The position numbers and the translations under genes are program-made. Below the pieces are notes generated by a model. The model was not told the origin of the DNA. It worked only from the letters and a program-made list of their open reading frames with translations, and searched no databases. Positions 2,229 to 64,000 of a DNA stretch of 64,000 nucleotides are shown piece after piece. Source of the stretch: a plasmid. Each line of letters begins with the position of its first letter. The first letter of the stretch is position 1. The stretch is taken from sequence record NZ_CP082221.1; one strand, written 5' to 3'.

Positions 2229-2564
2229 ATGAAAGACCTAAATGTACATGAAAATATTGACGAAATTGGTGTCAGAGCTGCTCAATTATCTTCGTTTATA
2301 GTTGTATTAACAGGAGCAGCAATAATCTGTATAAGCGCAACTAAAACGAAAGCTGGATTAAGTGTCGTTATGAAAGATCTGTTCCCATCTAATATATATG
2401 TATTAGTTGCTTTAATGGTGATGAGCTTTATCTTATGTACTTTTTCATTATTGAAAAATAATAAAGATAAGCATGTTTCATTTATTAAAGAGTTCTTTCG
2501 GCACATTGGTATACAAAGTGGAGCAATAATTATCATATTTGGTTTACTTTCAAGAATTTTATAA
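2229..2564 (+). CDS. small membrane protein, hypothetical
   Basis: 111 aa, 3 predicted TM segments, SD aaaggtgaaag upstream. Confidence 0.45.
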   Translation: MKDLNVHENIDEIGVRAAQLSSFIVVLTGAAIICISATKTKAGLSVVMKDLFPSNIYVLVALMVMSFILCTFSLLKNNKDKHVSFIKEFFRHIGIQSGAIIIIFGLLSRIL

Positions 2565-2635
2565 AGATAAAATCTAAAAAAGGGTAACTATAACGTGATA
2601 AAAAATTTCAAATTTATAGCTGTAATTAGATCTAA

Positions 2636-2653
2636 TGGTGCGGATCCGCAACC
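2636..2653. repeat. GC-rich palindrome family member (GCGGATCCGC core)
   Basis: tggtgcggatccgcaacca; directly upstream of the SD of the toxin-like ORF. Confidence 0.8.
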
Positions 2654-2667
2654 ATGAGGATTTAGAT

Positions 2668-2799
2668 ATGAAAATTACAAACAGAAGAAGAAGTGAGATT
2701 AGAAAAAATTTATGGAAATGGTGTTCTATTTGCATAATTTTTTTAAGTTTAATCATCATTTTTTTTAGTTTGAAAGTGGATATTTTCGGAGTTATTTAA
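2668..2799 (+). CDS. 43-aa basic/hydrophobic peptide, type I toxin-like candidate
   Basis: MKITNRRRSEIRKNLWKWCSICIIFLSLIIIFFSLKVDIFGVI; SD gagga 9 nt upstream; stop overlaps next ATG (taATGg); antisense ORF 2574-2759 on opposite strand. Confidence 0.35.
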   Translation: MKITNRRRSEIRKNLWKWCSICIIFLSLIIIFFSLKVDIFGVI

Positions 2800-2867
2800 T
2801 GGATCTGATTATGATGTTTGTTGGGTTTTGTGCTTTTGTTTTATGGATTATTCATGGTGTAAAATAG
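2799..2867 (+). CDS. 22-aa hydrophobic peptide translationally coupled to 2668-2799
   Basis: MDLIMMFVGFCAFVLWIIHGVK; ATG overlaps preceding TAA. Confidence 0.25.
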   Translation: MDLIMMFVGFCAFVLWIIHGVK

Positions 2868-3062
2868 GGCGTTCCCTACGGGCCGGGCTAGTTGGCTTCG
2901 CTCGAACTCCAAGCGAAAAAGAGGATCCATCGAGTTTAAAATCTAGTTTCATGCAAAGCCTGAACCTGATTTTAATACTCGATTCAAATCCTCTTTTTTT
3001 ACGCTTGTATTTCGCCCCTTACGGGCAACATCCCTAACGCAGCATGATCGTGCTGTTTATCT

Positions 3063-3424
3063 TTAAAATTGAATCTAGGGGCAATTAGAGCGATTTAGAG
3101 GGCTATTTGTCGCAACCCTGCGGGATTGCTTTGTTATTACCGGATAAGGTCCAATGGGAGAAGTTTCACTTCTTCGGTCGTCTAGTCAAAATCACAGATT
3201 TTGACTGACTCGCTCGAAGTTTGAAACGGTAATCAAGGAGGGGGATGCTCGCAAATTTCATCAGTTCGCAACGTGGACACGTTGCTCTGCAAATGTATTT
3301 TATAATACGAAAAATTACACTAAATATATGTTTTTTCTTAATAAAAAGACATGAAAATGTAGTATAATTAAGGGGTGAAATCGGATAGGCTGGTTTCTAT
3401 ATATGAGCTGAAAAGCTTAAGGTG
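3063..3424 (+). repeat. structured ~360-bp repeat, copy 1 (candidate ssDNA promoter/ssi or structured leader)
   Basis: near-identical to 59834-60193 and partially to 62240-62442; multiple perfect hairpins (gcaaccctgcgggattgc; agtcaaaatc-acag-gattttgact; gcaacgtg-ga-cacgttgc; long-range ttaccg/cggtaa); ends in tagtataat -10-like box and hairpin-SD module. Confidence 0.7.
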
Positions 3425-3428
3425 TACT

Positions 3429-3743
3429 ATGAAAATTTATACAAAAATTGCCCTTAATTACTTCAGAAATTTAATTTCTGCATGTGGAAAAGAACATGGG
3501 ATATTTTTCTCAGAATCACCACAAAATCCAAAACATTTAGTAGCCAATGACGCTATTTATTTCATTACTCAAATTGATGACTCAATTGTATTTATTGATT
3601 GTAAATATGGTCCAGTTTCAACTTATCGGATAGATGGAATTTTAGATTTTACATCTAATTCTATAGAGGATGCCGCTCAAATTGCTACTAATAATTTTCG
3701 TCTAATCTGTGAAAATCATTACACTATCTTGAATTGTGAATAA
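3429..3743 (+). CDS. hypothetical protein
   Basis: ATG 3429 directly after module gagctgaaaagcttaaggtgtact; track start 3375 lies inside the hairpin module. Confidence 0.5.
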   Translation: MKIYTKIALNYFRNLISACGKEHGIFFSESPQNPKHLVANDAIYFITQIDDSIVFIDCKYGPVSTYRIDGILDFTSNSIEDAAQIATNNFRLICENHYTILNCE

Positions 3744-4318: not shown

Positions 4319-4421
4319 ACTTAAAATGTATAATTTCAACAACATAAATGATATAATTTATTTGTGAAATCGGATAGGCTGATTTCGAATTTTTGAGCTG
4401 AAAAGCTTATGGAGTTTTAAG

Positions 4422-4753: not shown

Positions 4754-4851
4754 AAGTGATTGAATAAATTAAGGAAAATGTTATAATTTAATCAAGAAAT
4801 CGGATAGGCTGATTTCTATTTTTTGAGCTGAAAAGCTTATGGAGTTTACAA

Positions 4852-5759: not shown

Positions 5760-6250
5760 ACCATCTCAAATTTTAACTAGCAAACAAAACTTCTTTGTTT
5801 GGGGACAACTACATACTAAATATTTTCACCAATCTAGCAACAGAATTTTTTTAAAAAACTTAAGATTGATTAAATGATGCGGGACACCCCGCTCATTTTT
5901 TTTCTCACACACCACGCACCTAACGGTGCTTTTAGCTCAAGCCTTTATGGTGCAAGGTTTTGAGTGGATAAAACACTAGGTAAATATGGTTAACTTTTAT
6001 GATCTATAAACTGTTATATGTTATTAATATATAAAAAGAAATAGGTGTTAACTTTCATTTTATTTAAAGTTAACCAATAAACCCATAAAAACAATGTAAG
6101 AACATGTTTTTAAATAATATATATGGAGTAACCGACTTTATTTTATAAAAACAGAAAGTTTTTGATTTATGTTATTGAAATATATGTAAAAACTATAGTT
6201 ACACAACTATTTTGAACATAAAAATATAAATATTTCCAAAAGAACTAAAA
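5760..6250. promoter_or_regulatory. candidate oriT region
   Basis: AT-rich non-coding block immediately upstream of RHH-traD-traI; hairpin gcacc-taac-ggtgc (5916-5929) resembling R388 IR2 followed on the minus strand by GTGGTGTG; inverted repeat gttaacttt...aaagttaac at about 6045-6073. Confidence 0.5.
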
Positions 6251-6805: not shown

Positions 6806-8965
6806 ATGAAAGCAAAGAATAACTCAAAAGCAATCGAATTTACGAGAGGTTCTGAAATATGGATTCATCAATTTCGAATGTTTATTTCAAGCATGATGAA
6901 TGTCATAGTTTTTGGCCTGATGATTACGATTGGCATTGTATGTGCATTTCTATACATTAAATTAAAGGATGTTCATTTTCTTGCTTTAAGTGTGCAATAC
7001 GATATTTGGTTAAAGTCAGTATTTAATAATCCAGATGCGAGAGTAGCATTGAAGCTAAATGGTGTTGTACGTGATTACACTCTTGATCAAGCTCAGCACA
7101 TTATTAATCCCTATTTTAACCAATTAAAGTTTTATGTTTTTCGAGCATTTATTTTAGGTATTCTTTTAAGCTCATTTCTAGTCGGTGGTCTTATTTATTA
7201 CTGGTTTACTTATGGTAAGGAAGTAATGTCTGATGAACAAATTCGTGGTTCAGAACTAGTTTCTAATGACGCATTAATTTATAAAATCCAAAGTACGAAA
7301 GGATTCAGTCCATATAAAATTTCTAACATACCTATGGTAAAAAATACAGAAGGTACGAATGTTGGTATTTTTGGTGCTCCTGGTTCTGGTAAGTCTCAAA
7401 TTTTTAGAGATCATTTATCTCAGGTTAGAAGCAATAAAAGAAAAGCTATCGTTTATGATCCTTCAGGAGAATTCACTTCAGAATTTTATCGACCAGGTAT
7501 AGATATTATTCTAAATCCATTTGATGAACGTATGCCGTATTGGTCACCATTTTTTGAAATTCGTCATGATGAGCATTTCGATAGTATTGCTAATGCTTTT
7601 GTTCCAGTTGAGGGTAAAGATCCTTATTTTGGCGAAGCTGGTAGAACAGTATTAGCTGAAGTCATGCGTGAATTACATGCTAATGGTATACACTCAAATA
7701 AGACTCTCCATGACACAATTGCACATTTTACTATTGAAGAAATATCGTCTGTGCTTGAGGGAACGGCTGCTTCAAAGCATGTTGATAAAAAAGCTGAAAA
7801 GACGGCACTGGCTGTTCTTACAACAGTACAAAATAAATTAAGAGCATTTCGCTATTTACCAGATTCCGGTACACAGTTTTCTATACGTGATTGGGTAAGT
7901 CGGCCTGAAGAAGACTCATGGATTTTCCTTTCGCTTAGAGAAGAACAGAAAACTACTATTGAACCACTTATTACGTTGTGGTTTTCAATATTCATTAAAG
8001 CCGTAATGAACTTAGAACCAATACATCGTGAACTATTATGGATGTATTGTGATGAGTTCCCAACTCTACCAAAAATGGATGATTTACCTTTATCTCTTAC
8101 AAATACTCGTAAATTCGGTTTATGTCATTTTTTAGGACTACAAGATATTCCTCAACTTGAAGAAAAGTACGGAGAAAAAATTGCTCGTTCAATAATTTCA
8201 GCTTTACAAACGAAAGTGTTCTATCGAGTTAATGAAAATGAAACTGCGAAAAGAATGTCTGAAATTCTTGGACAGATGGAAGTTGCTGAAAAAAATATGT
8301 CTAGAAGTATGGGGGTTAATGATTCAAGAGACGGTGATAGTTTTATTACTCAAAGGAGAGAACGCTTTATTGTTTTACCATCTGAAATTATGAAGTTGCC
8401 AGATCTAACAGGATACTTAAGAGTTCCTGGTGATTATCCAGTTACGAAGATTACTCAGAAATATCATCCTCACTTAAAAAATGTTCCAGCATTTATAGAA
8501 CGAGAAAATATGGGTTTCATTTCTGCGTTTGCGGTTGCTGAAGCTTTAGAATCCCAATCGAATTCTGATGGAAAAGAGCCATTAGTAGAACAACAAAATG
8601 AAGAAGGCAATTTCTTTGGGAATTCTACTGAGCCACTTGTTGGAAATAGTAGTTTCTTTGGGAAATCTAATACAACCTCTGAAATTATTTATGAAAATTC
8701 ACCTTTAGATTTATTTCATTCTCAAACAGAAGATAGTGATTTATCACTTAATGAAAAAAACGGTATTCAACCAGATGAAATAATCCCGGACGAAGATGAA
8801 AAGCCTAAAGTTGTTAATAATGACAGACTACATACTTTTGCCAGCTATCTTGCCGCAACCGATGAATCAAGTGCTCAGAAAAATAATGACGTTACTCCTG
8901 ACACTAATTCAAGTAATGATTCTAATGAATCTAGTTTTAAAGACTTGTTCAATAACAATGATTAG
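6806..8965 (+). CDS. traD: type IV coupling protein TraD/TrwB
   Basis: N-terminal TM helices, Walker A GAPGSGKS, FtsK-like core, acidic disordered C-tail with FFG repeats. Confidence 0.9.
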   Translation: MKAKNNSKAIEFTRGSEIWIHQFRMFISSMMNVIVFGLMITIGIVCAFLYIKLKDVHFLALSVQYDIWLKSVFNNPDARVALKLNGVVRDYTLDQAQHIINPYFNQLKFYVFRAFILGILLSSFLVGGLIYYWFTYGKEVMSDEQIRGSELVSNDALIYKIQSTKGFSPYKISNIPMVKNTEGTNVGIFGAPGSGKSQIFRDHLSQVRSNKRKAIVYDPSGEFTSEFYRPGIDIILNPFDERMPYWSPFFEIRHDEHFDSIANAFVPVEGKDPYFGEAGRTVLAEVMRELHANGIHSNKTLHDTIAHFTIEEISSVLEGTAASKHVDKKAEKTALAVLTTVQNKLRAFRYLPDSGTQFSIRDWVSRPEEDSWIFLSLREEQKTTIEPLITLWFSIFIKAVMNLEPIHRELLWMYCDEFPTLPKMDDLPLSLTNTRKFGLCHFLGLQDIPQLEEKYGEKIARSIISALQTKVFYRVNENETAKRMSEILGQMEVAEKNMSRSMGVNDSRDGDSFITQRRERFIVLPSEIMKLPDLTGYLRVPGDYPVTKITQKYHPHLKNVPAFIERENMGFISAFAVAEALESQSNSDGKEPLVEQQNEEGNFFGNSTEPLVGNSSFFGKSNTTSEIIYENSPLDLFHSQTEDSDLSLNEKNGIQPDEIIPDEDEKPKVVNNDRLHTFASYLAATDESSAQKNNDVTPDTNSSNDSNESSFKDLFNNND

Positions 8966-8976
8966 GTAGGTAGATA

Positions 8977-11900
8977 ATGCTAAGTGTTAACAATGTAGTT
9001 GAATCTGGAAAGGCTTTGTCTTACTACCAATTAGATAATTATTATACTAATGAGCAACAATCATTGGATCAAACTGAATGGTATGGTCGTGGTGCTCAAG
9101 TATTAGGTATTAATGGTGAACAAATTGAGGCAAATACTTTTAAAGACTTGCTAGAAGGTAGAGTAGAAGATCAACAGTTGGGGCGAGTTAGGAAAGATGA
9201 AAATGGTCAAAGTTATATTGATCATAGAGCTGGTATAGATTTAACGTTTAGTGCTCCAAAATCTGTTTCGATAATGGCAGAGGTTTTTGAAAATCAAGAT
9301 GTGCTACAAGCACATCTTGATGCTGTTAAAGATACTATTTCCGCTATTGAAGATCATTACACGCAAACTAGAATCAGTGTTGATGGCACAATTCAAAAAT
9401 CAGAGAGTGATAATTTAGTTGTTGCTCTTTTTAATCACAATACTAGTAGAGCATTGGATCCGCAAACTCATACACATGCAGTTGTTATGAACATGACTTT
9501 AAATGATAAAGATTCATGGACGGCATTAAGTAACGAAGTAATTTATGATAATCAGGCAACCATAGGTTCGATATATAATTCTAATCTCGCTCAAAATTTA
9601 AGAGCTATAGGTCTTGATGTAGAGGTAAAAGATAATCAGGGCAATTTTGAAATTGCCGGCTTTACTCCAGAAATGATACAAGAGTTTTCTCAGCGAAGAA
9701 CTCAGATTATTGAAAGTTTAAAAAGTAGAGGAATTGATATTGAAGATGCACCTGCTAGTTTGAGAGAACAAGCAGCTTTAAAAACACGGGAAAGGAAACA
9801 GGCATTTAATGAGGCTGAATTACGTCAAGTTTGGAAGGAACGTGCAAGTGAACTTGGCATTACACAAAGTTTTGTAGATAAGCTAGAAGATAAAATTAAA
9901 ACGAATCAGATGAATGCGGATCCGCAACCTTCAGAAAAAAACCAAAAAGACATATGGAAAACCGGATCCTCAAAAAATGATCCGAATATATCATTTGAAG
10001 GGAAAACGGAAGTTTCTAGCGATAAATCTAATAACGCTGATAAAGAAGCACCAGATAAACGAATTGACAACTCTGAAACGCAAAATCCGAGCGATAGCGC
10101 CATATCAAATGAAAAAGCTAGTCAAGTATCAGGAAAATCCCAAAAAGAGCCAGAAACGCAAAATATGGGCCAAGAAGCGCATATTCAAGATGAAGTTAGA
10201 TTGGGTAAGAAACAAACTGAACCTAAAGCGAGTAACAATTCAAAAGACCAGACTGTACCTAGAGAACGACCTTATCAAAGAAAGAATCGTGAATCTCAAC
10301 AAGTACTCATAAGCCAAAAAACAAAAGAAGCCGTTTACTACGCTATAGGGCATCACACCGAAAGAGAAATGATGATACCTGAAACAAAGATACTAAATAC
10401 GGCTATGAAATTTGACATACAAGAAGTAACTCATGAACAAGTACGAGCTGAGTTAAATAGACTAGAAAAAGAAAAAATCATCGTCCGGGTAGATGGGAAG
10501 TTAACAACTCAGCGTTTGGCACATAGCGAAGTTTGGTCGTTACAACATATACAAAATGAACAAAAAAGCGTGAGTCCAATAGTGGATGAATCTCAAGTTA
10601 AAACAAGACTCGATCAAGAGGAACAGTTGAGAGGGAGGAAGTTTACACCCGGACAAAGAGCAAGTCTTGAAACAATATTTAGTTCTGAAAGTAGATATAT
10701 AGGCGTAGACGGTTTAGCTGGTACGGGTAAAACTACAATGCTGCATACTTTGAATAAAGTAGCCTCAGAAAACGGTTTTATTGTTAAAGGTATGGCCGCC
10801 ACTGGCGTAGCTGCTAAAAACTTAGAATTGGAAACTGGTATACCCTCAAAAACAATGGCCATGTTTCAGATTAAAGAAAATGAGCTTCAGAAAGAAATTG
10901 AAAAGAATGGGGGAGTAAACCGTAAAAATGAAATCTGGATAGTTGATGAATCTTCATTTGTAAGCCAGACAAACTTCAAAGACATTTTGACTTTGGCTAA
11001 GCAAGCTAATAGTCGTGTTGTTTTTTTAGGGGATAAATTGCAGCTTCAGTCAATTAGTGCAGGAAAACCATTTGAACTTGTACAAAATAGAGGTGTGCTA
11101 AAAACTTCACAAATGCATGACATTATCCGTCAAAAAAACCAGGAACTTAAAGACGTGGTTTCTGTTGTCGTTGCAAAAAACAAAGAAGGTAAAATTGATT
11201 TAAGTAACAACGATAAAGCTTTTGATTTACTTGATAAACAGCAAAGGATTCATGAAGTAGTTGTAGCTGCAAAGGGTACACAACCAGCTCTACATGAGCA
11301 GCATGACTTATTTCAGGAAATTCATGAAGTACATCAAAAATTAGTTGGTGATTATATGAGGCTTAATAAGGAATCAAGAGATAATAGCCTTATCATTACT
11401 CCCTTTAACTCAGATAGAGTAATGCTGAACTCACTTGTAAGAAGCGAAATGAAAAAACTAAATGAATTAGATCATAATGATCATAATTTTGAGATCTTAG
11501 TAAATACCAATTTCACTGAAGCGGAGCGTAAACATATTAATAATTATGAGCCTAATATGACGATACGTTTTGGGAAATCATTTACAGATAAAGACACAGG
11601 AATCAAAATTGAAAAAGGTGACTATCTAAAAGTAATGATGAAAGACAAAGAAGGTAAATTGGTATTAATTGATAAGGATAAAAATAAAATTAAATGGAAC
11701 CCTAAAAAAGGAAGTGTAGAAGTATATAAATCAGAACAAAGAAAGATAGCTAAGGGAGATGTAATAAGAATTACCCGGACAAAAGATGATGAACAGATCA
11801 AGAATGGTGAAAGATATAAAATCAAGGATATTCATGAAGATAAAGTAATAGTAGAAGGCCAGGATGGGAAAGAGAAAAGCCTATCAAGAAGTGGGTTTAA

Positions 11901-12252
11901 ACATTTTGATTACGGCTATAGTAGTACTGTTTATTCCTCTCAGGGCTTAACACAGGGTAATGTATTTTTGTTACTAAATAGCCAAAAATTAGCAAATGAT
12001 CTGAAAAGTGATAAGGCTGCCACCAAAGTTTTAGGTAATACATTTGGAACAAGATCATTTTATGTTGCTGTAACGAGGGAAGAGCATAATTTGCAGATTT
12101 ACACTGATAATAAACAAATGACACGAGAAGCAATTACGTTTAAACAAGATAAAACAAGTTATTTGGATACAGTTAAAGAAGTTGGTCAAAAAGTACCAGA
12201 ACATATCATCGAAAATGAAAAAATTGGTGTAACTAATGAGCTAGAAAGATAG
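8977..12252 (+). CDS. traI: MOBF relaxase-helicase (TrwC/TraI family)
   Basis: N-terminal relaxase with HTHAVVMN histidine triad; ~150-aa low-complexity linker; C-terminal helicase with Walker A GLAGTGKTT. Confidence 0.9.
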   Translation: MLSVNNVVESGKALSYYQLDNYYTNEQQSLDQTEWYGRGAQVLGINGEQIEANTFKDLLEGRVEDQQLGRVRKDENGQSYIDHRAGIDLTFSAPKSVSIMAEVFENQDVLQAHLDAVKDTISAIEDHYTQTRISVDGTIQKSESDNLVVALFNHNTSRALDPQTHTHAVVMNMTLNDKDSWTALSNEVIYDNQATIGSIYNSNLAQNLRAIGLDVEVKDNQGNFEIAGFTPEMIQEFSQRRTQIIESLKSRGIDIEDAPASLREQAALKTRERKQAFNEAELRQVWKERASELGITQSFVDKLEDKIKTNQMNADPQPSEKNQKDIWKTGSSKNDPNISFEGKTEVSSDKSNNADKEAPDKRIDNSETQNPSDSAISNEKASQVSGKSQKEPETQNMGQEAHIQDEVRLGKKQTEPKASNNSKDQTVPRERPYQRKNRESQQVLISQKTKEAVYYAIGHHTEREMMIPETKILNTAMKFDIQEVTHEQVRAELNRLEKEKIIVRVDGKLTTQRLAHSEVWSLQHIQNEQKSVSPIVDESQVKTRLDQEEQLRGRKFTPGQRASLETIFSSESRYIGVDGLAGTGKTTMLHTLNKVASENGFIVKGMAATGVAAKNLELETGIPSKTMAMFQIKENELQKEIEKNGGVNRKNEIWIVDESSFVSQTNFKDILTLAKQANSRVVFLGDKLQLQSISAGKPFELVQNRGVLKTSQMHDIIRQKNQELKDVVSVVVAKNKEGKIDLSNNDKAFDLLDKQQRIHEVVVAAKGTQPALHEQHDLFQEIHEVHQKLVGDYMRLNKESRDNSLIITPFNSDRVMLNSLVRSEMKKLNELDHNDHNFEILVNTNFTEAERKHINNYEPNMTIRFGKSFTDKDTGIKIEKGDYLKVMMKDKEGKLVLIDKDKNKIKWNPKKGSVEVYKSEQRKIAKGDVIRITRTKDDEQIKNGERYKIKDIHEDKVIVEGQDGKEKSLSRSGFKHFDYGYSSTVYSSQGLTQGNVFLLLNSQKLANDLKSDKAATKVLGNTFGTRSFYVAVTREEHNLQIYTDNKQMTREAITFKQDKTSYLDTVKEVGQKVPEHIIENEKIGVTNELER
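9913..9928. repeat. palindrome family member inside traI
   Basis: atgcggatccgcaacc; encodes NADPQ in the traI linker. Confidence 0.8.
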
Positions 12253-14288: not shown

Positions 14289-14750
14289 TTATTTACAAGA
14301 GTTTTTAATGGCAAATGATTTAATTACTTCTGATCTTTCGTTGTATTTTTTTGCGAGTGATCCATATTCTGATAGTGTATAACTTCCTTTTACAAATACA
14401 GAATTCAGGATTGGATCATTTACAGTTCTAACTGTTGGTAAAGCAATATCTAAAGCCTGTTGATATGGTTTCATAGCATTATTCAAATGATATGGAAATG
14501 ATAAAAAGCCTATAGTAGTTCCTATAAAAAGAGATAAGGCAATTATATTAATATTTAAGTTTACAAATTTAAAAGTTAGCAATTTTAGTGCTATCAAACT
14601 AATGACTATCGACAATATCATATAACTAGCACAATTCATTGCTACATTAATAGATGTTGGATTCAAAAATGAAGTGTCTGTATTAGGAAGCGTAATAAGA
14701 CAATTGTTAATTAAGTCTAGTGGTTGCAATAATTCCATGTTTAACTCCAT
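14289..14750 (-). CDS. membrane protein, hypothetical
   Basis: 153 aa, TM segments; module revcomp gagctgaaaagcttatggag upstream. Confidence 0.45.
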   Translation of the reverse strand: MELNMELLQPLDLINNCLITLPNTDTSFLNPTSINVAMNCASYMILSIVISLIALKLLTFKFVNLNINIIALSLFIGTTIGFLSFPYHLNNAMKPYQQALDIALPTVRTVNDPILNSVFVKGSYTLSEYGSLAKKYNERSEVIKSFAIKNSCK

Positions 14751-14963
14751 AAGCTTTTCAGCTCTAAAATTTTGGTATTGGTTAATTAATTTGTAATATT
14801 GAAGGCGGAAAATTGGATTGAATTAACATAAATGATAATGCTAACACCGCTGCAAGACATGGTGTCACATGATTATTAAATCTATGGATAAATAATATAT
14901 GCCAGCCCATTAAAATTGAAATTCCTGTTAAATAGAATAATGGACCAATTTATTAACCCTCTC

Positions 14964-17356: not shown

Positions 17357-17692
17357 TTAGAACAACACTTCATTGGGTGTCTTAACTTTTTCATTTTCAA
17401 ATTTATTGCCACAGTCTTTACATTCCAGATCAATTTTTTTGAAAATCTTTGATGCTTCTGATTCCTTTAATTGAAAACATCCATTTTCAAAATGAATTAC
17501 ATCTGCTGTTTGGTATCTAACGCTGCATATGAGATTCCGACTTTTACATTTAGGACATTTTACTTCGGAATTTAATTCTAATGGTTTTAACGGAGTATTG
17601 AGAGCTGCTTCAACAGTTGATAACTTAACATTCATAATTTTTGACTCATAACTATTAATGAGATTTAAAGAATTTATGCCTTTTTTTGCCAT
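17357..17692 (-). CDS. zinc-ribbon protein, hypothetical
   Basis: CPKC...(37 aa)...CKDC pattern. Confidence 0.4.
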   Translation of the reverse strand: MAKKGINSLNLINSYESKIMNVKLSTVEAALNTPLKPLELNSEVKCPKCKSRNLICSVRYQTADVIHFENGCFQLKESEASKIFKKIDLECKDCGNKFENEKVKTPNEVLF

Positions 17693-17869
17693 TTTTCTTA
17701 AGCTTGTATAAACAAAAAAACAACATTATGGCTTGGGGAGTGTTAAATATCGCTTATTTAACCTCAGCAAGTGTATGCCTATTGTAACAAATAATGTAAA
17801 AATATATTAATGAAATCTATAACATACTGAAATTTATAGATAAAAACAAGCAGTTTTATTTTTAAAAAA

Positions 17870-44924: not shown

Positions 44925-46118
44925 GTGTGTCCAAATTGTACAATGGGCATACTTATGACTGTAAACTTTGTTAATTTAAATTCTAAAAAAGACTTTATAA
45001 TCAATAGATTATATGAAAACCTACCAAAAAAACCTTACTGTACCAGTGACTTCTTCGGATTAAAGATTCGTGACAAGAAACAAGCTATACGTCACTCACA
45101 TATACAAATTAATCATCCGAATTTTAAAAGATATATAGTTATTGATGCTGATTATCCAGGCGCAGCAACAGCTTGGCGGTATGATTTTGATGACAATATT
45201 CCAGTACCAAATTTAATTGTAGTTAATCCAGAAAATACTCATTGCCATTTTTACTATGAACTTGAAGCTCCAGTAAGTTTTACTGAAAGTTCCAGCAAGA
45301 GAGCTCAAGAATTTTATAATTCAGTTTCTAAAAAGCTCACTGAAGTATTAAAAGGTGACAGCAAGTACGTGGGACTAATAGCAAAGAATCCTGCACATGA
45401 AAAATGGATTGTAGAAGTACCACGATTAGAAAAGTATTCATTGCATGAACTTGTTGAACATTTAGAACTTAAGCCACATGAATACAGAAATATAAATTCA
45501 GAAAAACCCGGTATAGAGAAATTTGTAATTAACGGCCGTAATGATCATCTATTTAACGAAATACGGCATCAAGCATATATCGACATTAGAAGTTATAGAA
45601 GTAAAACATTTGTTGAGTGGTTTGATCATGTAAAAAGCTTATTAATAAATGCAAATAAGAATTTTAGCGTTCCGCTACCATATTCAGAAGTTTGTGCTAC
45701 AGCAAAATCAATCGCAAAATATTGTTGGAAAAAAGATAGCTACTGCTTTCAAGAGTTTTGTGAAAGGCAACATATTAAAGCAAAGAAAGGTGGACGTGCA
45801 AAATCCGATAAATATGTTGAAATGAGGCGCACGGCTGCGCGTTTATTGCGTTCTGGTAAAACTAAAACCTATATATCAGAATTACTTCAAGTATCGTACA
45901 GAAGCGTTCTCCGTTGGCTTCAAGGCATAAAAGTACAAGCTGCAATAATGCATTTATCAGAATTAAAAAAGTTATGTGACAATGCCCAAAATCAGATATT
46001 AGCCTGCTTCATTGCTTCTTTAATCGTTATTATTTTAGATGAGCACATTTATGATTTTAATGAATCTGAAGAATTAAAAATTACCATCAAATTCAAATTA
46101 AAAGTTCCAATTCAATAA
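44925..46118 (+). CDS. rep: replication initiator, Replicase/PriCT-type (primase-like Rep)
   Basis: GRNDHLFN matches the RN..LF signature of the replicase family; C-terminal HTH; perfect 9-bp hairpin (44762-44787) about 140 bp upstream; alternative starts at 44943 and 44955. Confidence 0.55.
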   Translation: MCPNCTMGILMTVNFVNLNSKKDFIINRLYENLPKKPYCTSDFFGLKIRDKKQAIRHSHIQINHPNFKRYIVIDADYPGAATAWRYDFDDNIPVPNLIVVNPENTHCHFYYELEAPVSFTESSSKRAQEFYNSVSKKLTEVLKGDSKYVGLIAKNPAHEKWIVEVPRLEKYSLHELVEHLELKPHEYRNINSEKPGIEKFVINGRNDHLFNEIRHQAYIDIRSYRSKTFVEWFDHVKSLLINANKNFSVPLPYSEVCATAKSIAKYCWKKDSYCFQEFCERQHIKAKKGGRAKSDKYVEMRRTAARLLRSGKTKTYISELLQVSYRSVLRWLQGIKVQAAIMHLSELKKLCDNAQNQILACFIASLIVIILDEHIYDFNESEELKITIKFKLKVPIQ

Positions 46119-49722: not shown

Positions 49723-49848
49723 TATTTTTTTTGTTTAAATATACAGAACCGTCTGTTAGTATAGCTAAATAATAAACAGTTTGTTTTAAGTATGTTTTAG
49801 TAGTATAATCTACGCAATTAATGAGCAGAAATGCTTAAGGAGTTCAAG

Positions 49849-54349: not shown

Positions 54350-55231
<882 letters not shown>

Positions 55232-59238: not shown

Positions 59239-59475
59239 ATGAGTAATGCTGATCCTCAACTTGAGCATGTTGATCCAGCTCATCCTGTTGCACCAGATGC
59301 TTATATTAGAGTTCTGAACTGTAAGAGTAATTATGTAAATATATTGGCTGGATGGTTTCTAAAAGATGGCGAGAAGAAGTTTTATATCGCAGAAGTAAGA
59401 GGCAATGACGTTGAAGCTGGTTTTAACAGGCTTGATTGGTTGACAGAGTTTGACACAATTTATAAGGGCAAATAG
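59239..59475 (+). CDS. hypothetical small protein
   Basis: 78 aa ORF, 4 nt after upstream stop. Confidence 0.4.
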   Translation: MSNADPQLEHVDPAHPVAPDAYIRVLNCKSNYVNILAGWFLKDGEKKFYIAEVRGNDVEAGFNRLDWLTEFDTIYKGK

Positions 59476-59687: not shown

Positions 59688-59833
59688 AACAAATCCTCCT
59701 TTCAGTAATTTATTATATGTGATTTATTTAATTTATATACAAAAAATATTACAAGTTTAATTTTGTTTTTGATCATATTTGTTAATTCTAGCCATGTTTT
59801 ATTTCTTTGGTAGTTAGGCTACCTTGTTTCTAT

Positions 59834-60193
59834 AAAATTGAATCTAGGAGCAAATAGAGCGATTTAGAGGGCTATTTGTCGCAACCCTGCGGGATTGCTT
59901 TGTTATTACCGGATAAGGTCCAATGGGAGAAGTTTCACTTCTTCGGTCGTCTAGTCAAAATCACAGATTTTGACTGACTCGCTCGAAGTTTGAAACGGTA
60001 ATCAAGGAGGGGGATGCTCGCAAATTTCATCAGTTCGCAACGTGGACACGTTGCTCTGCAAATGTATTTTATAATACGAAAAATTACACTAAATATATGT
60101 TTTTTCTTAATAAAAAGACATGAAAATGTAGTATAATTGAGGGGTGAAATCGGGTAGGCTGGTTTCTATATATGAGCTGAAAAGCTTAAGGTG
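59834..60193 (+). repeat. structured ~360-bp repeat, copy 2
   Basis: about 97 percent identical to 3063-3424, including the tagtataat box and hairpin-SD module. Confidence 0.75.
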
Positions 60194-60199
60194 AATTGA

Positions 60200-62122: not shown

Positions 62123-62239
62123 ACATGTGTTATGTGATTTTTAAAGTAGGTGTAGGTAAGTATATCTATCCCTAACACACTAGAATATTAAAAAATGCTG
62201 TCAGTTCCATTAATTAACTAGAGTGGATGAACCTAAAAT

Positions 62240-62442
62240 CAATTAGATTCGCAATTTAGAAGCGCAACCCTGCGGGATTGCTTTGTTACTCCCGGATAAG
62301 CTCCAATGGGAGAAGTTTCACTTCTTCGGTCGTCTAGTCAAAATCACAGATTTTGACTGACTCGCTCGAAGTTTGAAACGGTAATCAAGTAGGGAGATGC
62401 TCGCAAATTCCTTCAGTTCGCAACGTGGACACGTTGCTCTGT
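62240..62442 (+). repeat. structured repeat, partial and diverged copy 3
   Basis: retains the gcaaccctgcgggattgc, agtcaaaatcacagattttgact and gcaacgtggacacgttgc hairpins. Confidence 0.65.
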
Positions 62443-62602
62443 TAGTAATGTTTAATTCGAAAATATATTTCATTAAATTAATGTTTTTTAACAATATTAA
62501 CGTTTAAAGATCTTGATTAAAATACATCATTGTATTACAATTTTGGTTAGAAATCGGATAGGCTGATTTCGTATTTTGAGCTGAAAAGCTTATGGTGAAA
62601 AA

Positions 62603-63100: not shown

Positions 63101-63128
63101 TTGAGCTGAAGAGCTTGCGGAGAAAAAA

Positions 63129-63936: not shown

Positions 63937-63962
63937 AGCTTAGGTTGTTGCGGATCCGCAAC
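63937..63962. repeat. palindrome family member (26-bp perfect)
   Basis: taggttgttgcggatccgcaacaaccta after the MTase-like ORF. Confidence 0.85.
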
Positions 63963-64000
63963 AACCTATTTAAGACAAATTGGCGCTATAAAATTTAATC

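Follow-up and report, generated by a model that had tools for sequence, protein, structure and literature searches.

A conserved structured element ahead of leading-region operons in Acinetobacter conjugative plasmids, possibly a signal on folded single-stranded DNA

We analysed a structured, non-coding repeat in a stretch of plasmid DNA of 64,000 nt (NZ_CP082221.1; hereafter the window). The region is more than 99% identical to about 200 plasmids of ~70 kb from Acinetobacter baumannii and Acinetobacter seifertii, including pACICU2 (NC_010606.1) and p1AB5075. These plasmids are typed as conjugative (MOBF/MPF_F), and judged by its sequence the window is a conjugative plasmid of A. baumannii of the RepAci6/pACICU2 type. 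An initial annotation had described three copies of a 360-bp element, and all three were recovered at the same places. What is conserved is a core of about 180 nt, which occurs three times in the window, always on the + strand:

3109-3289, + strand: core copy 1 (basis: nhmmer/BLAST copies, helix coordinates and covariation)
59878-60058, + strand: core copy 2, with the same sequence as core copy 1
62262-62442, + strand: core copy 3, 95.1% identical to copy 1
3060-3108 and 59829-59877, + strand: 5' extension, found in copies 1 and 2 only

The copies emerged as a repeat family (D1; 3060-3359, 59829-60128 with 99% and 62212-62511 with 70% ungapped identity), and the + strand of the window has exactly three occurrences of the palindrome GTCAAAATCACAGATTTTGAC, versus 0.03 expected. 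Copies 1 and 2 belong to a larger, recent duplication (3060-3428 versus 59829-60199, 97.6% identity). Copy 3 has the core in common with them and, more loosely, a promoter/leader module further downstream; the flanks of core 3 are only 53-67% identical to those of the other two. Terminator-like hairpins with T-runs precede the 5' extensions (3039-3056 and 59809-59823). The start codons downstream of the three copies lie at 3429, 60200 and 62603, all on the + strand. The genes behind the copies encode two PAPS-reductase-like proteins, an orphan N6 methylase and a J-domain protein, and are of the establishment/anti-defence type. In strain AB5075, the element is located on p1AB5075, upstream of ABUW_RS19340.

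The core folds into a branched, multi-helix structure, with the following coordinates on the + strand:

3112-3129: P1 of core copy 1, gcaaccc-tgc-gggattgc with a bulged A
3138-3159: P2 of core copy 1
3163-3227: composite hairpin P3-P4-P5 of core copy 1, with an apical ACA loop inside the invariant CACAG
3163-3172 with 3216-3227: long-range helix P3, in which GTTTCACTTC pairs with GAAGTTTGAAAC
3228-3244: invariant junction GGTAATCAAGGAGGGGG of core copy 1
3244-3262: P6 of core copy 1 (weak)
3268-3285: P7 of core copy 1; the core ends in GCTCTG
62264-62281, 62290-62311, 62315-62379 and 62420-62437: P1, P2, P3-P5 and P7 of core copy 3

To assess this fold, 58 distinct copies, representing at least five plasmid backbones of Acinetobacter, were aligned with MAFFT. 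The structure was drawn by hand (P1, P2 and P7, with P4 and the P5 hairpin enclosed by a long-range P3) and was compared with controls in which the partner columns were slid by 1-3 positions, and with 500 shuffles. Among the cells of the proposed pairs 90.1% were paired, versus 35-52% in the slid controls, and 29 of the 44 pairs had changed on both sides (13-20 in the controls). The covariation score was 0.305 versus 0.05-0.11, and none of the 500 shuffles reached the observed covariation values. Single pairs take up to four Watson-Crick types (pair 99:151, for example, occurs as GC, UA, AU and CG), and P2 pairs better in copy 3 (TCCC/GGGA) than in copy 1. Invariant or nearly invariant unpaired stretches (CGGTC, CACAG, TCGCT, AACGGTAATCA, CAGTTCGC, GACAC and GCTCT) adjoin the covarying helices. 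The short hairpins of the initial annotation are thus present, if less perfect than it had them: P1 carries the bulged A, the second has a 3-nt ACA loop and the third comprises 7 bp with a 4-nt loop. The long-range pairing ttaccg...cggtaa that it had also proposed did not hold, since copy 3 and other families have a different 5' partner, and CGGTAATCA, although invariant, is unpaired according to the covariation.

Pairing is almost purely of the Watson-Crick type. P3, P5b and P7 together comprise 866 Watson-Crick, two G.T and four A.C cells, and P1 comprises 252, one and two, respectively. In P2, T.G and C.A are equally frequent, and the 33 pairs of the three best helices contain seven G.U cells. 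Such pairing looks DNA-like rather than RNA-like, or else reflects selection on both strands, and since wobble pairs are almost absent, the alignment does not reveal which strand folds. Folding both strands, as had been proposed, showed that each strand of 3060-3430 folds better than shuffled sequences (z = -3.39 and -3.45). A small open reading frame (ORF) as the conserved entity was rejected: families differ by frame-breaking indels, and an ORF of 39 codons exists in the window only. Rfam searches with gathering thresholds on the whole window and with E<=10 on 2500-3600 returned nothing real, and literature searches with sequence strings and plasmid names found no description of the element. 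It therefore appears to be an undescribed conserved structured element.

Its distribution is narrow. Distant blastn searches detected the core in 357 plasmid records, of which 347 are from Acinetobacter and 350 are typed as conjugative; the non-conjugative PLSDB records with a core number seven. A pattern scan of species-representative genomes yielded 33 confirmed loci, almost all on plasmid-like contigs of Acinetobacter; a few metagenome-assembled genomes carry other labels, and two hits were random. A metagenome scan added 47 further loci. Hits lie on plasmids or on contigs of up to ~67 kb, except for a 3.17-Mb scaffold record of Acinetobacter ihumii (L037/L039). The backbones that carry the core comprise two MOBF/MPF_F families (RepAci6 and TJAB1), pNDM-BJ01-type plasmids (MOBQ/MPF_T), pH7-48, a Low-GC family (MOBP/MPF_T; pHHV216, pAVAci14 and pM175-3.2) and small traA-virB6 plasmids. 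The J-domain genes downstream of the core in the RepAci6 and in the Low-GC family are homologues (44% identity), and in pH7-48 an ArdC-like gene lies downstream. That 350 of the 357 records are conjugative and that MOBF, MOBQ and MOBP backbones of one genus share the core suggests a host factor and a transfer-linked role.

The direction of transfer was deduced from the following features of the window:

5900-5933, - strand: predicted nic region of the origin of transfer (oriT), R388-like IR2-nic, upstream of a trwA-like gene and the genes for the type IV coupling protein (T4CP) and MobF
6806-8965: T4CP gene
8977-12252: MobF relaxase gene
44925-46118: RepAci6 Rep of the prim-pol type (domains Replicase, PF03090, and PriCT_1)
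54401-55231: beta-lactamase-type gene (Transpeptidase domain), flanked on both sides by transposase (DDE) ORFs and read, together with these, as an OXA-23/Tn2006-type unit

Read from 5933 to 5900, the - strand is AAAAGCACC-GTTA-GGTGCGT-GGTGTGT/GAGAAAA, with the predicted nic at about 5906/5907. The nic substrate of R388 is GCGCACC-GAAA-GGTGCGT-ATTGTCT/ATAG (PMC4176350). Both share the same architecture, with an identical proximal arm (GGTGCGT), and the motif at 5900-5933 is probably the oriT nic of the window plasmid. Because of this R388-like architecture, we infer transfer of the - strand, which would enter with its 5' end leading and proceed toward lower coordinates. Genes on the + strand that lie below 5400 or at the opposite end of the window would therefore belong to the leading region and be templated by the transferred strand (T-strand). 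GC skew is positive (G>C) over the entire 64 kb, in line with a single direction of nearly all genes and perhaps of replication.

With this assignment, all three window copies lie upstream of + strand genes and point toward the predicted nic, as the initial annotation had it. In the two MOBF families every intact copy points to T4CP/MobF and oriT (three in the window, four in pTG22182_1 and three in TJAB1); those of pTG22182_1 lie 2.6, 7.6, 19.6 and 22 kb from the predicted nic. The oriT of the Low-GC family is located between parB and mobC (PMC7031236), and the Low-GC a-copy heads the leading operon and points at it. In RepAci6, TJAB1, Low-GC and pNDM-AB, all intact copies fall within the first quarter to third of the entering DNA, with oriT assigned from sequence features or from the literature. 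This early position is compatible with priming sites that are useful anywhere on the entering strand.

Our best, still tentative, reading is that the core is a genus-specific initiation signal on folded single-stranded DNA (ssDNA) that is tied to conjugative entry, primes the complementary strand and perhaps early transcription, and would thus be a functional analogue, not a homologue, of single-strand initiation (ssi), single-strand origin (sso) and Frpo elements. When the T-strand (here the - strand) enters the recipient, the core would fold, and the P3-P4-P5 hairpin would be flanked by the invariant AACGGTAATCA-RGGARGG and by hairpins P6 and P7 on the entering strand. A host enzyme, either RNA polymerase or a primase/primosome, may then start an RNA at the base of the main hairpin. 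Extended in the + direction over the promoter/leader module and the establishment genes toward oriT, this RNA would render these genes double-stranded, or allow their direct transcription, very early. The core is restricted to conjugative plasmids and sits in untranscribed spacers ahead of leading operons; its action as ssDNA, the active strand and the enzyme used are what we infer from this setting.

Several observations weigh against such a signal, and we put it forward tentatively, as the copies differ in polarity and a motif for recognition by an enzyme is not evident. The orientation given by the initial annotation holds in the window. Intact inverted copies occur in other backbones, relative to a T-strand that is itself predicted, and in this respect part of what the initial annotation had named as refuting its idea, random orientation in related plasmids, applies. 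The Low-GC b-copy is inverted and heads the type IV secretion system (T4SS) operon beyond rep/oriV; P3 and P5 are fully compensated in this old paralogue. In pNDM-AB (copy a) and in L027, a second copy is inverted and lies where two genes converge, without a gene downstream of it. In a clade of small plasmids, the core lies antisense between virB6 and a 157-aa gene ahead of traA. Among ~95 non-redundant contexts, the upstream and downstream neighbours were oriented relative to the core as (+,+) in 33, (+,-) in 16, (-,+) in 13 and (-,-) in seven, and about one third lacks a co-oriented downstream gene. No -35/-10 boxes are conserved in the P3-P5 stem: the hexamers vary between TTGACT, TTGTCG and TTTTAA and between GAAACT, GCAACT and TAAACT. 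On the - strand of the window this arm reads TTGACT-16-GAAACT, its positions covary, and the base at -11 is A or C (C in most families). The TAGTATAAT box is not part of the conserved fold, and when the - strand is folded it stays unpaired. Finally, wobble pairs give no strand call, and the two strands of 3060-3430 fold equally well.

An inverted TJAB1 copy was considered as a further exception to the T-strand rule and set aside, as it is a decaying, rearranged remnant (NZ_MT849282.1, 59311-59447, - strand; L095, 29311-29447). It is degenerate, lacks P1 and P2 and is fused to an ORF of 36 codons. It is flanked, in inverted form, by the operator-rich region found ahead of the other cores of TJAB1, which marks a rearrangement at the element.

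The known systems resemble the core to different degrees. ssDNA promoters consist of a large stem-loop in the T-strand that rebuilds -35 and -10 boxes upstream of early operons; they are active on ssDNA only, double as primers and fall into several unrelated classes (PMC11541004; PMC12672017). Like Frpo/ssi of F and ColIb-P9 (classes 1-3 of pESBL/F), the core has several leading-region copies that point toward oriT, with genes templated by the T-strand, and both combine strong folds with a restricted host range and with anti-defence/establishment genes (PMC11541004; PMC12672017). Unlike Frpo, which is one stem of ~300 nt, the core is a branched fold of ~180 nt, is followed by a normal double-stranded DNA (dsDNA) promoter and occurs in intact inverted copies in other plasmids. 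In agreement with the initial annotation, no sequence similarity to Frpo/ssi was detected: blastn hits at word size 11 were confined to Acinetobacter-type plasmids, with no F-like plasmid among 357-364 hits. The suggestion that it is an Frpo/ssi-type promoter thus stands for position and orientation in the window and falls on the boxes in the stem. A leading-region position applies to the window, TJAB1 and the Low-GC a-copy, whereas uniform polarity, stem boxes and homology are lacking. We therefore reject the core as a member of the Frpo family, while a Frpo-like mode of action is possible. A promoter called by a scan around P7 (TGGACA-16-TATTTT, 3274-3301) was window-specific and was discarded.

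The sso signals (ssoA and ssoU of rolling-circle plasmids, sso1 of ICEBs1) and the G4/phiX-type ssi are folded, orientation-specific and host-specific ssDNA with conserved unpaired motifs beside hairpins, at which complementary-strand synthesis starts. The core likewise has invariant unpaired motifs next to covarying helices. Its host, however, is Gram-negative and its plasmids replicate by the theta mode, and on direct reading the ssoA motif CS-6 (TAGCGT) is absent from 3109-3289. With integron attC sites the core has in common the folded ssDNA, the near-pure Watson-Crick stems, the location between gene modules and the conservation of structure, which in attC exceeds that of sequence. But attC is a single imperfect hairpin with R and L boxes that needs an integrase, whereas the core is branched, highly conserved in sequence and without a linked integrase.

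The core is also distinct from the resident transfer origins. An inverted repeat with a nic beside the relaxase operon, as expected of an oriT, is not found at the core; in the window this arrangement lies at 5900-5933. In pNDM-AB (L045, ~440-500) and in L008 (~3520-3560), an inverted repeat GTTTCTC-N3-GAGAAAC directly precedes traA (MobA_MobL + AAA_30). It resembles the oriT repeat of RSF1010/R1162 and is probably the oriT of pNDM-BJ01-type plasmids. With oriT at traA, the core is not the oriT of these plasmids, and copy b of pNDM-AB, not copy a, is in the Frpo-like polarity. The resemblance of AAC-GGTAA to the nic region of RSF1010 had made the core itself an oriT candidate; this was rejected, since the plasmids have their oriTs at other sites and there is no GCGCCC motif.

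Downstream of the core, the window contains a second conserved unit. The 360-bp element of the initial annotation is conserved, structured and non-coding, and in fact consists of the core and an independent promoter/leader module (all on the + strand):

3291-3345: spacer from the core to the promoter module, AT-rich and little conserved
3346-3428: promoter/leader module (basis: D2/D3 repeat families and motif counts)
60115-60199 and 62519-62602: equivalents of the promoter/leader module
3360-3368: TAGTATAAT box (-10), part of the promoter/leader module
3377-3397: leader hairpin GAAATC-GGATAGGCT-GGTTTC
3405-3418: hairpin GAGCT-GAAA-AGCTT
3419-3424: Shine-Dalgarno sequence AAGGTG, followed by the ATG at 3429

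Spacer and module (3290-3428) have a GC content of 0.27. The -10-like box of the initial annotation is real and belongs to this module rather than to the core. Seven modules were found in the window, with leader loops at 83-91, 921-929, 3383-3391, 4372-4380, 4802-4810, 60152-60160 and 62556-62564. As only three of the seven are preceded by a core and the four others, ahead of the genes at 132, 957, 4422 and 4852, are core-less, the two modules are separable.

In every family a sigma-70 promoter is located 3' of the core, at a spacing of ~40 to 300 nt: pNDM-AB, pH7-48 and L027 have TTGTAC-17-TATAAT; the Low-GC promoter is TTGAAT-17-TATAAT and carries an operator-like palindrome. The 5' edge of the core usually adjoins a terminator-like hairpin, otherwise the stop codon of the upstream gene, and in 'b-type' copies a canonical hairpin with a T8 run takes the place of P1. 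No terminator was found 3' of P7, and no convincing promoter upstream of the core, divergent contexts included; an operator palindrome upstream of the Low-GC b-copy was considered as a core promoter and fits the promoter of the divergent gene instead. These data bear on the possibility that the core acts as a structured RNA, that is, as a + strand transcript serving as cis-leader, 3' untranslated or intergenic element or small RNA (an antiterminator, stability element or protein platform). Such an RNA would account for the conserved unpaired stretches beside covarying helices, as in ribo-regulators, and for the co-orientation of the core with a neighbouring gene in most contexts, and, folded as RNA, the + strand has a slight advantage over the - strand in 10 of 14 representatives. 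This small advantage is, however, to be expected from the plasmid-wide G>C skew, and the seven (-,-) contexts are antisense to both neighbours. Given the downstream promoters, the terminators or stop codons abutting the 5' edge, the lack of a 3' terminator and the scarcity of wobbles, a 5' RNA leader, the alternative raised by the initial annotation, is disfavoured: the core does not lie between a transcription start and a start codon, and neither G.U pairs nor a clear strand asymmetry mark it as RNA. The lack of an Rfam match and, as weak evidence, of a p1AB5075 small RNA in the Hi-GRIL-seq tables of AB5075 point the same way. Altogether, we regard a structured RNA as unlikely.

The downstream promoters also raise the possibility of a cis element acting at the dsDNA level, in which a hairpin or cruciform extruded by supercoiling, or a protein-binding platform, insulates or tunes zygotically induced promoters. 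Repressor-controlled zygotic induction is known for Reg576 of p576 and for KorA/KorB of IncP (PMC6294495), and the promoters downstream of the core similarly carry operator-like palindromes and head establishment operons; repression of this type accounts for the promoters and leaves the structured core unexplained. A cis element would explain the Watson-Crick-only pairing, which is expected if both strands must pair, and the location in untranscribed spacers just upstream of repressor-controlled promoters, such as those with TTAGTCATGACTAA and GTCCACAGGTGGAC after both Low-GC copies. It would also suit the Low-GC a and b paralogues, which are each co-oriented with their own operon, on opposite strands. 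On the other hand, the four core-less modules of the window do without it, the distance from core to promoter ranges from 40 to more than 700 nt, with an antisense gene intervening in one module, one third of the copies face no co-oriented gene, and branched folds containing internal loops make poor cruciforms. It is about as improbable as a structured RNA.

Beside this stands the observation that the promoters downstream of both Low-GC cores carry the palindromes TTAGTCATGACTAA and GTCCACAGGTGGAC (L004, ~10230-10290 and ~5880-5940; L006, 10210-10480). Their presence at both promoters suggests one repressor for the establishment and T4SS operons, and thus zygotic induction by de-repression. 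Upstream of two TJAB1 cores, operator-like palindromes CATAGA-N8-10-TCTATG are repeated (L007, ~9850-9990; L044, ~17640-17790).

Returning to a signal on folded ssDNA, such a signal might be used outside of conjugation. As a priming or restart signal on the lagging-strand template during vegetative replication, its active form would be the + (alignment) strand. In all plasmids whose origin can be located, the orientation of the core fits the direction of the fork. In the Low-GC family, the a and b copies sit on opposite sides of rep/oriV and each points away from it; the four copies of RepAci6 are all found downstream of rep, at no more than 30 kb; the + copies of TJAB1 lie rightward of rep; and the positive GC skew spans the whole window. 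Yet this correlation is automatic if genes are co-oriented with replication, the core is almost absent from non-conjugative Acinetobacter plasmids (the seven records above), and plasmids with iterons or a prim-pol Rep need no special priming sites. This makes a role in vegetative replication quite unlikely.

Also quite unlikely, in our estimate, is a folded-DNA signal that is read in either orientation and nucleates DNA or RNA synthesis on the exposed T-strand or on the lagging-strand template. Under this reading both strands must fold, because covariation is purely Watson-Crick, and if true it would explain both polarities, the untranscribed spacers and the restriction to one genus across unrelated backbones.

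A boundary of recombination or mobile modules, i.e. a folded recombination site or a homology block that shuffles modules without any role in expression, is very unlikely: similarity between copies and between plasmids often ends at the core edges, one copy of pTG22182_1 breaks off at core position 229 with a toxin-antitoxin module behind it, copies a and b of pNDM-AB have only the core and 27 nt in common, the same methylase protein occurs in different backbones and the TJAB1 copy at 59311-59447 is decaying, but structure is under strong purifying selection across old paralogues, unpaired motifs are invariant, and neither terminal inverted repeats nor target duplications, a spread to chromosomes or an associated recombinase were found. 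In particular, hallmarks of miniature inverted-repeat transposable elements, IS200-IS605 or attC were not found, as the flanks of independent copies share no terminal repeat or target and no recombinase is linked.

The preferred reading, a signal on the entering strand, would matter for the spread of resistance. In Acinetobacter, OXA-23, NDM-1 and aminoglycoside resistance spread on plasmids with the core (pACICU2/p1AB5075-like RepAci6, pNDM-BJ01-type and Low-GC). What happens soon after entry decides whether a plasmid becomes established, and ssDNA promoters have so far been defined only in enterobacterial IncF and IncI plasmids. If correct, the reading would extend ssDNA-promoter biology to another major pathogen, help to explain host range and offer a compact target. 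Should it turn out not to act as ssDNA, the core is still a conserved structured element without a previous description, of which more than 50 distinct variants can be used for modelling.

Next to the repeat lies a GC-richer non-coding segment (2876-3062, + strand), a separate conserved unit outside of it. Its elevated GC content (0.45 versus 0.34 for the window) agrees with the initial annotation. It contains an imperfect hairpin of ~30 bp (about 2917-2996; AAAAAGAGGATCCATCGAG...CTCGATTCAAATCCTCTTTTTTT) followed by T7, and a second, small terminator-like hairpin at 3039-3056. The segment is kept only in the two MOBF families, with more than 95% identity in RepAci6 and 83% in TJAB1/MDR-TJ; related plasmids carry it at two places per record, the window once.

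A palindrome, (GT)TGCGGATCCGCAA(C), recurs at module boundaries (~2640-2655, ~63950-63965 and the flanks of L007 and L044). It directly precedes two TJAB1 cores and could be a terminator or an operator.

The leader hairpin of the seven-copy module has a conserved loop, GGAUAGGCU, and covarying stems (GAAATC/GGTTTC, GAAGTT/AACTTC), and lies 3' of a TG-N3-TATAAT box. The GGA in its loop is a possible site for an RNA-binding protein, and an analogous hairpin (AGGTCG-loop-CGACCT) is found in other plasmid families. Ahead of many start codons, a GAGCU-GNRA-AGCUU hairpin with a G.U closing pair directly precedes the Shine-Dalgarno sequence (AAGGUG or AUGGUG). It occurs 17 times in the window versus 0.08 expected, for example at 107-124, 943-960, 3405-3422, 4395-4412, 14747-14764 (- strand), 49823-49840, 60174-60191 and 63103-63120. 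Compensatory variants exist (GAGCA/UGCUU and GAGCC/GGCUU), and the hairpin appears to be a motif for translation initiation at the RNA level that is conserved in the plasmid family to which the window belongs.

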